Source: a phage. Taken from it: a DNA stretch of 441 bases. Positions 88 to 441 of the stretch are shown in pieces. The notes below the pieces were generated by a model. The model did no database searches and was not told the DNA's origin. It was given only the letters and a program-made list of their open reading frames with translations. The DNA lies in the sequence record M38334.1. One strand, 5' to 3'. A program made the translations under genes and the position numbers. Numbering within the stretch: the first letter of the stretch is position 1; every line of letters starts with the position of its first letter.

Positions 88-441
88 ATGGCTATGTCTA
101 ACATGACTTACAACAACGTTTTCGACCACGCTTACGAAATGCTGAAAGAAAACATCCGTTATGATGACATCCGTGACACTGATGACCTGCACGATGCTAT
201 TCACATGGCTGCCAGTAATGCAGTTCCGCACTACTACGCTGACATCTTTAGCGTAATGGCAAGTGAGGGCATTGACCTTGAGTTCGAAGACTCTGGTCTG
301 ATGCCTGACACCAAGGACGTAATCCGCATCCTGCAAGCGCGTATCTATGAGCAATTAACGATTGACCTCTGGGAAGACGCAGAAGACTTGCTCAATGAAT
401 ACTTGGAGGAAGTCGAGGAGTACGAGGAGGATGAAGAGTAA
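88..441 (+). CDS. ocr: Ocr (gene 0.3 protein), DNA-mimic anti-restriction protein that inhibits type I restriction-modification enzymes; T7 or a very close T7-like phage
   Basis: Seen in sequence: complete ORF from ATG 88 to TAA 439..441, 117 codons, matching the supplied ORF track; Shine-Dalgarno 8 nt upstream. The protein has 33 acidic residues (16 D + 17 E) against 6 K/R and ends in the tail [11 protein letters not shown]. Established knowledge (recalled, not searched): the N-terminus [27 protein letters not shown], the acidic C-terminus and the 117-aa length match T7 Ocr; I cannot confirm from memory whether every residue is identical. Confidence 0.93.

Follow-up and report, generated by a model that had tools for sequence, protein, structure and literature searches.

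The sequence of record M38334.1, a window of 441 nt that represents the whole stretch of DNA analysed here, is almost certainly bacteriophage T7 DNA running from about nt 839/841 to nt 1278 of the T7 genome, and covers the whole of gene 0.3 (ocr) together with its ribosome-binding site and, ahead of them, the 3′ portion of the early leader. A base-by-base alignment of window nt 4–441 with T7 nt 841–1278 showed 436 of 438 bases to be the same, with two mismatches that are adjacent to each other. The only departures from sequenced T7 are this two-base swap, which falls in codon 43 of the gene and replaces Asp with Ser, and nt 1–3 of the window. The gene, its context and its functional class are already known, and only two features of this record deserve mention: a D43S codon that is likely to be spurious, and a 5′ end that is damaged.

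The ocr CDS occupies nt 88–441 of the plus strand, on which all features described below are also found, and is supported by profile, alignment and fold. It begins with ATG at nt 88, ends with TAA at nt 439–441, and specifies 117 codons plus stop, or a mature protein of 116 aa after removal of Met1. It is the sole long ORF of the window. The remaining ORFs of at least 20 aa number three (25–31 aa) and use a different frame or the opposite strand; these were rejected as genes, being too short, located inside a known gene and unsupported. An earlier note, made from the sequence alone, had proposed a complete T7 Ocr gene at this position on the basis of its length, N-terminus and poly-acidic C-terminus, and this is borne out by the translation, in which both termini are found as in Ocr and 116 of 117 residues are those of the T7 protein. 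At the nucleotide level 352 of the 354 coding bases are the same as in T7 gene 0.3, annotated in the T7 genome (V01146) as nt 925–1278 with the description 'inhibits EcoB and EcoK host restriction'. The note had also anticipated that residue differences from canonical T7 Ocr might be found, and the alignment gives exactly one, Ser for Asp at residue 43.

Database searches returned a consistent picture. The protein matched Pfam PF08684 ('DNA mimic ocr') with a score of 214.4 bits against a cut-off of 25 (E = 2.7e-64), residues 3–103 aligning with positions 1–101 of the 101-position profile, and it also matched PHROG 2568 ('ocr-like anti-restriction', E = 1.7e-56) and PDB 1s7z (116/117 residues, E = 2.1e-72). 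The same Ocr sequence is common to PDB entries 1s7z, 6r9b, 6r9g, 7bst, 7btp, 7eew, 8q56 and 8v45. When the window was compared with 50,697 phage records (megablast), 192 matched, 103 of them at 99% identity or more, with T7 on top. There is no evidence against the gene identity. Copies of the window were detected neither among 72,556 PLSDB plasmids nor in 5,426 complete E. coli genomes (megablast), and these empty searches speak against an origin from a plasmid or an engineered strain. Of the two sources that had been suggested for the window, the early region of a T7-like phage therefore stands, the phage being T7 itself with its native 0.3 leader, while a cloned ocr cassette finds no match in plasmids or E. 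coli genomes.

Once the phage DNA has entered, Ocr is the earliest T7 protein to be synthesised. It is a textbook DNA-mimic anti-restriction protein, with a crystal structure dating from 2002–2004 and more recent complexes with type I methyltransferases, RNA polymerase, PglX/BrxX and AriA. The monomer consists of four helices and the dimer forms a bent, highly acidic rod. In shape and charge the dimer resembles bent B-DNA of about 24 bp, and it occupies the DNA groove of type I restriction-modification (R-M) enzymes while most of the genome has yet to enter (PMC3439906). Ocr also binds the BREX methyltransferase PglX/BrxX (PMC11341690), and its dimer is sensed by AriA of the PARIS system, from which phages escape by the changes F54V or L82R at the dimer interface (PMC10802264). 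The inhibition of type I R-M and BREX and the sensing by PARIS, which the earlier note had named together with the status of ocr as a known counter-defence gene, are thus all documented in the literature (PMC3439906, PMC11341690, PMC10802264). The window protein is predicted to behave likewise, i.e. to bind and inhibit type I R-M enzymes and PglX, and to trigger PARIS.

An AlphaFold2 model of the window protein (alignment of 48 family members) gave a pLDDT of 91.2 and a pTM of 0.83, and contains four predicted helices (residues 8–25, 31–45, 50–57 and 78–116), the last of them long. Foldseek comparison of this model with the PDB returned eight Ocr chains (TM 0.81–0.93, rmsd 1.2–2.2 Å), a fold match that is itself a prediction and follows for the most part from the protein being 99% identical to one of known structure. 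Only Ocr chains were found at E ≤ 0.001, the next match having an E value of 2.7, and a check on the Ocr fold that had been proposed from the sequence was in this way answered positively. The matches include BREX PglX/BrxX–Ocr complexes (8q56, 8zek, 9ex7) and a PARIS AriA–Ocr complex (8v45). ArdA, and Arn of phage T4, are like Ocr in being acidic mimics of the DNA backbone that act against type I R-M systems (PMC2731889), but are unrelated to it in sequence and fold, and neither was found by Foldseek at E ≤ 0.001.

The window protein contains 33 acidic (D+E) and 6 basic (K+R) residues, compared with a composition of 34 and 6 given for T7 Ocr in PMC3439906; it is this extreme acidic excess that leads to mimicry of the phosphate backbone in Ocr. 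In the translation, F54 and L82 (Met1 numbering) of the dimer interface are unchanged. In a set of laboratory lines of T7 (T7250L/T7170S, MZ375xxx records), by comparison, Ocr carries F54L (protein group P0004, QZB84632.1 and others) on 18 contigs, and this is the same interface residue that is changed to Val in PARIS escapers. Two of the MZ375 records, MZ375278 and MZ375294, show one mismatch more to the window than wild-type T7 does.

The acidic C-terminal tail (residues 100–117, nt 385–438) is evident in the sequence. The truncated proteins Ocr99 and Ocr109 are still active against EcoKI restriction in vivo, so the tail is dispensable (PMC3439906). Within this segment, nt 392–433 consist of two adjacent 21-nt units, TCAATGAATACTTGGAGGAAG and TCGAGGAGTACGAGGAGGATG, which are 71% identical and present in two copies. 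The pair is attributable to the Glu-rich tail, in which it encodes a repeated EY-L/E-EE motif, and could be an old internal duplication or simple low complexity. A repeat search of the window otherwise found only short two-copy matches.

Early in infection, E. coli RNA polymerase transcribes from the T7 promoters A1–A3; RNase III cuts these transcripts at the R0.3 site, and the 0.3 mRNA is translated from a strong Shine-Dalgarno sequence. Window nt 4–87 are the same as the T7 0.3 leader (T7 nt 841–924), including both the hairpin and the Shine-Dalgarno sequence. The hairpin (nt 7–74) is interrupted and has a folding energy of −24.5 kcal/mol (z = −2.43); it is supported by RNA folding, identity to T7 and conservation. 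Its upper stem-loop (nt 29–50), a 9-bp stem with a tetraloop, is invariant in six Teseptimavirus leaders, while in the lower stem of the same leaders two pairs vary on both sides with the pairing kept. RNase III reportedly cuts at about T7 nt 890 (Dunn and Studier 1983), corresponding to about nt 53 of the window, which falls within the internal loop on the 3′ side of the upper stem. In T3 and T7 the R0.3 site lies between promoter A3 and gene 0.3 (PMC3276506), and the hairpin at nt 7–74 is this processing site, where the 0.3 mRNA acquires its 5′ end. The Shine-Dalgarno motif GAGGT (nt 75–79) is spaced 8 nt from the ATG and does not vary among the six aligned leaders.

A scan of the window for sigma-70 promoters and terminators found none. 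The lack of a promoter is accounted for by the upstream position of A1–A3, which are annotated at T7 nt 498–750, outside the window. An Rfam search of the window gave no credible family, only four chance matches (E = 1.1–7.8) far under the gathering scores, and the R0.3 site has no family in Rfam. At the other end, the window finishes on a base shared by two genes: the A at nt 441 (T7 nt 1278) is both the last base of the 0.3 stop codon and the A of the gene 0.4 start codon, as seen in the T7 annotation and in the sequence AGTAATGTCT. Gene 0.4 is located at T7 nt 1278–1433 and its body lies beyond the window. The TAATG overlap suggests translational coupling of genes 0.3 and 0.4. The placement of the gene as the first early gene is supported by the T7-identical leader with its hairpin and Shine-Dalgarno sequence, and by the stop codon that overlaps the 0.4 ATG.

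Two relatives display variations on this arrangement. Klebsiella phage vB_KpnP_IME305 (OK149215.1, nt 16,688–16,747; H80) has the R0.3 leader hairpin, being 98.3% identical over 60 bases to window nt 4–63, but the match stops short of ocr; it seems that the RNase III processing module can move independently of its downstream gene. In phage 13a (NC_011045.1; L005, nt 100–339) a gene of 80 codons, 0.45, is located between a T7-like leader and gene 0.3, and splits the window match in two.

The left end of the window departs from T7 at nt 1–3, which read CTG where the T7 genome has TCT (nt 838–840). These three bases are most simply read as the CT of T7 nt 839–840 followed by one extra G. A 30-base query across the 5′ end had no match in the phage collection, and a 26-mer spanning the junction was absent from IMG/VR, JGI metagenome contigs and GTDB genome contigs (exact scans). 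The possibility that the window begins at an AluI site (AGCT, T7 nt 835–838) was considered as well, but it needs both a substitution and a deletion, and the idea of a restriction fragment was dropped in favour of the simpler start at T7 nt 839 with one added G.

The second departure lies at nt 214–215, where the window has AG and T7 (nt 1051–1052) has GA, so that codon 43 (nt 214–216) is AGT (Ser) instead of GAT (Asp). The change amounts to two transitions that give a clean in-frame missense, and AGT is the codon also used for Ser59 in the same gene. Counting Met1 it is D43S, which corresponds to D42S in the mature numbering, since the Ocr literature omits the cleaved Met; it reduces the acidic residues from 34 to 33 and leaves the six basic residues as they are. 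At this codon GAT is found in both of the early records of Dunn and Studier, V01127 and V01146.

Among 133 representatives of the Ocr family, the column corresponding to residue 43 contains Asp in 121, Glu in five, Gly in three, Ala in two, Tyr in one and a gap in one. Ser was not found at this column in any of the 133 representatives, nor was Asn. The residue at mature position 42 is thus acidic in 95% of the family, where the window has Ser; the position is conserved yet not family-defining, as six natural members are non-acidic there.

Searches for the variant itself gave the same outcome at each scale. A 51-base query centred on the swap had no match in the 50,697 phage records; its flanks are shorter than 28 bases, so that it finds no seed on wild-type T7. 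The exact 30-mer carrying AGT (the variant-spanning k-mer of the Ser43 allele is GCTGCCAGTAATGCA) was absent from IMG/VR, JGI metagenome contigs and GTDB genomes (one per species), while the positive control, the 30-mer carrying GAT, recovered the T7 genome. No gene call in an index of 153 billion positions specified the exact Ser protein. In a collection of 15 billion proteins it occurred solely as NCBI nr entry AAA32564.1, with no contig, compared with 248 contigs for wild-type Ocr. AAA32564.1 is labelled '0.3 gene product [Escherichia phage T7]' and is the same as the window product over all 117 residues, including Ser43; it was very probably translated from this nucleotide record.

The reading we lean towards, with some reservation, is that the codon-43 swap and the three leading bases are not biology but mistakes made when the sequence of a legacy database entry was read or transcribed. 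The distribution of the variant argues for this: the Ser codon is missing from the phage records and from the IMG/VR, JGI and GTDB contigs in which the wild-type control is present, Ser is unrepresented at the family column, and the Ser protein is known only as one old-style, contig-less accession. An exchange of neighbouring bases and a defect at the extreme end of a record would both, moreover, be typical of manual gel reading. Against it, the provenance of AAA32564.1 is one that we infer, the variant must have come from a source other than V01127 and V01146, which carry GAT, and a true double substitution, or a mutation made by design, would look the same, the more so as the Ser codon is clean. 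A genuine allele, either a polymorphism of the phage stock or a deliberately sequenced missense mutant of gene 0.3, in which one surface carboxylate is lost and some defence interactions are slightly altered, is accordingly given some weight but seems unlikely. In its favour, the swap keeps the reading frame and gives a well-formed codon, AGT, which also serves for Ser59; the residue is exposed and forms a salt bridge, D42–K1097, with PglX (PMC11341690); position 42, being acidic in 95% of the family, is under selection; and Ocr missense changes do arise in evolved T7 lines (F54L in P0004, for example) as well as in PARIS escapers (F54V or L82R). It would, however, require two adjacent substitutions of which neither one-step intermediate is found in T7, and across the family representatives the intermediates would be Asn, which is absent, and Gly, which occurs in only three. 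No instance of it was seen in assembled phage genomes, metagenomes or gene calls, the searchable literature holds no Ocr D42/D43 mutant besides the all-acidic POcr, and a point mutant leaves the anomaly at nt 1–3 unexplained.

A more specific form of this proposal, that Ser43 is real and that loss of the D42 carboxylate weakens BREX inhibition or changes PARIS sensing while anti-type I activity is kept, making it a separation-of-function variant, is regarded as very improbable. Rather improbable too is that ocr was cloned or engineered as a cassette, or that its sequence was altered on purpose, in which case nt 1–3 would represent a junction to non-T7 DNA and D43S would have been designed or introduced by PCR. 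Such a cassette would agree with the ungapped T7 homology that starts only at nt 4 and with the end of the window at a stop codon, as in a subcloned or trimmed insert, and a dinucleotide change is a typical product of site-directed mutagenesis. Yet the plasmid and E. coli genome searches were empty, the 84 bp of native leader with its RNase III site has been kept whereas published constructs fuse NdeI at the ATG, and AAA32564.1 is labelled simply as a T7 gene product. The substitutions in the published series of Ocr mutants are D→N, E→Q or D→C, with no case of D→S, and D42 is not singled out among them. One extra G, moreover, accounts for nt 1–3 without a junction.

Whatever its origin, the likely effect of the substitution can be gauged from previous studies. 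In the crystal structure of the Salmonella BREX PglX:Ocr complex, D42 is surface-exposed and bonds K1097 of PglX, as one of six salt bridges (PMC11341690). In the literature searched, that list of salt bridges is the only place where the residue is named; among the Dryden-lab mutagenesis and chemical-modification papers and those on E. coli BrxX and PARIS, D42/D43 of Ocr goes unmentioned. In the work of Roberts et al. 2012, D42 was spared by the clustered charge-removal mutants and changed only in the all-acidic POcr (PMC3439906). Ocr proved highly tolerant of such changes: removal of five to six charges at once in aa 12–26, aa 25–35 or aa 92–99 left activity like that of the wild type, and the block mattering most for anti-restriction was aa 59–91 (PMC3439906). 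D42 lies outside this block, and D42S is predicted to be active because blocks of five to six charges can be removed outside aa 59–91 with wild-type activity kept. Published mutagenesis therefore suggests that D43S would barely affect anti-restriction activity. By inference, Ocr D42S would still fold, dimerise and block EcoKI, with at most a slight loss of affinity for PglX.

Compared with T7 Ocr (OCR_BPT7; PDB 1S7Z; V01146/NC_001604, nt 925–1278), the window is alike in its 117 codons, leader, Shine-Dalgarno sequence, overlap with gene 0.4, domain, predicted fold, dimer-interface residues and tail, and differs in codon 43 (AGT, not GAT), in the resulting loss of one acidic residue, and in nt 1–3, which are unlike T7 nt 838–840. 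The Ocr-like proteins of other Autographiviridae (among them 13a, EG1, NC-A, phiA1122, SP6 and Yersinia and Proteus phages) all carry PF08684, are about 112–123 aa in length and 52–97% identical, and share with the window protein an acidic tail and a position as first early gene; none has Ser at column 43, and they show many other differences. In their source records, several clear Ocr homologs (P0018, P0006, P0065, P0086 and H70; PF08684, 70–95% identical) go by the name 'protein kinase' or 'receptor binding protein kinase', which is probably annotation carryover from gene 0.7 or from mis-indexed lists. The Ocr-like protein of Yersinia phage phiA1122 (P0029) is 140 aa long and has an additional Pfam match, PF27024, besides PF08684, which points to an extended N-terminus or to a start codon called further upstream.

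For discovery the record offers little, and its value is curatorial. If it is used as wild-type Ocr, whether for gene synthesis, structure work or variant calling, it imports a D43S change that is probably spurious and that sits at a conserved, contact-forming acidic residue. Should the Ser residue nevertheless be real, the protein would still function as Ocr, its acidic residues numbering 33 in place of 34, and the allele would provide a cheap single-residue probe of the Ocr–PglX interface.
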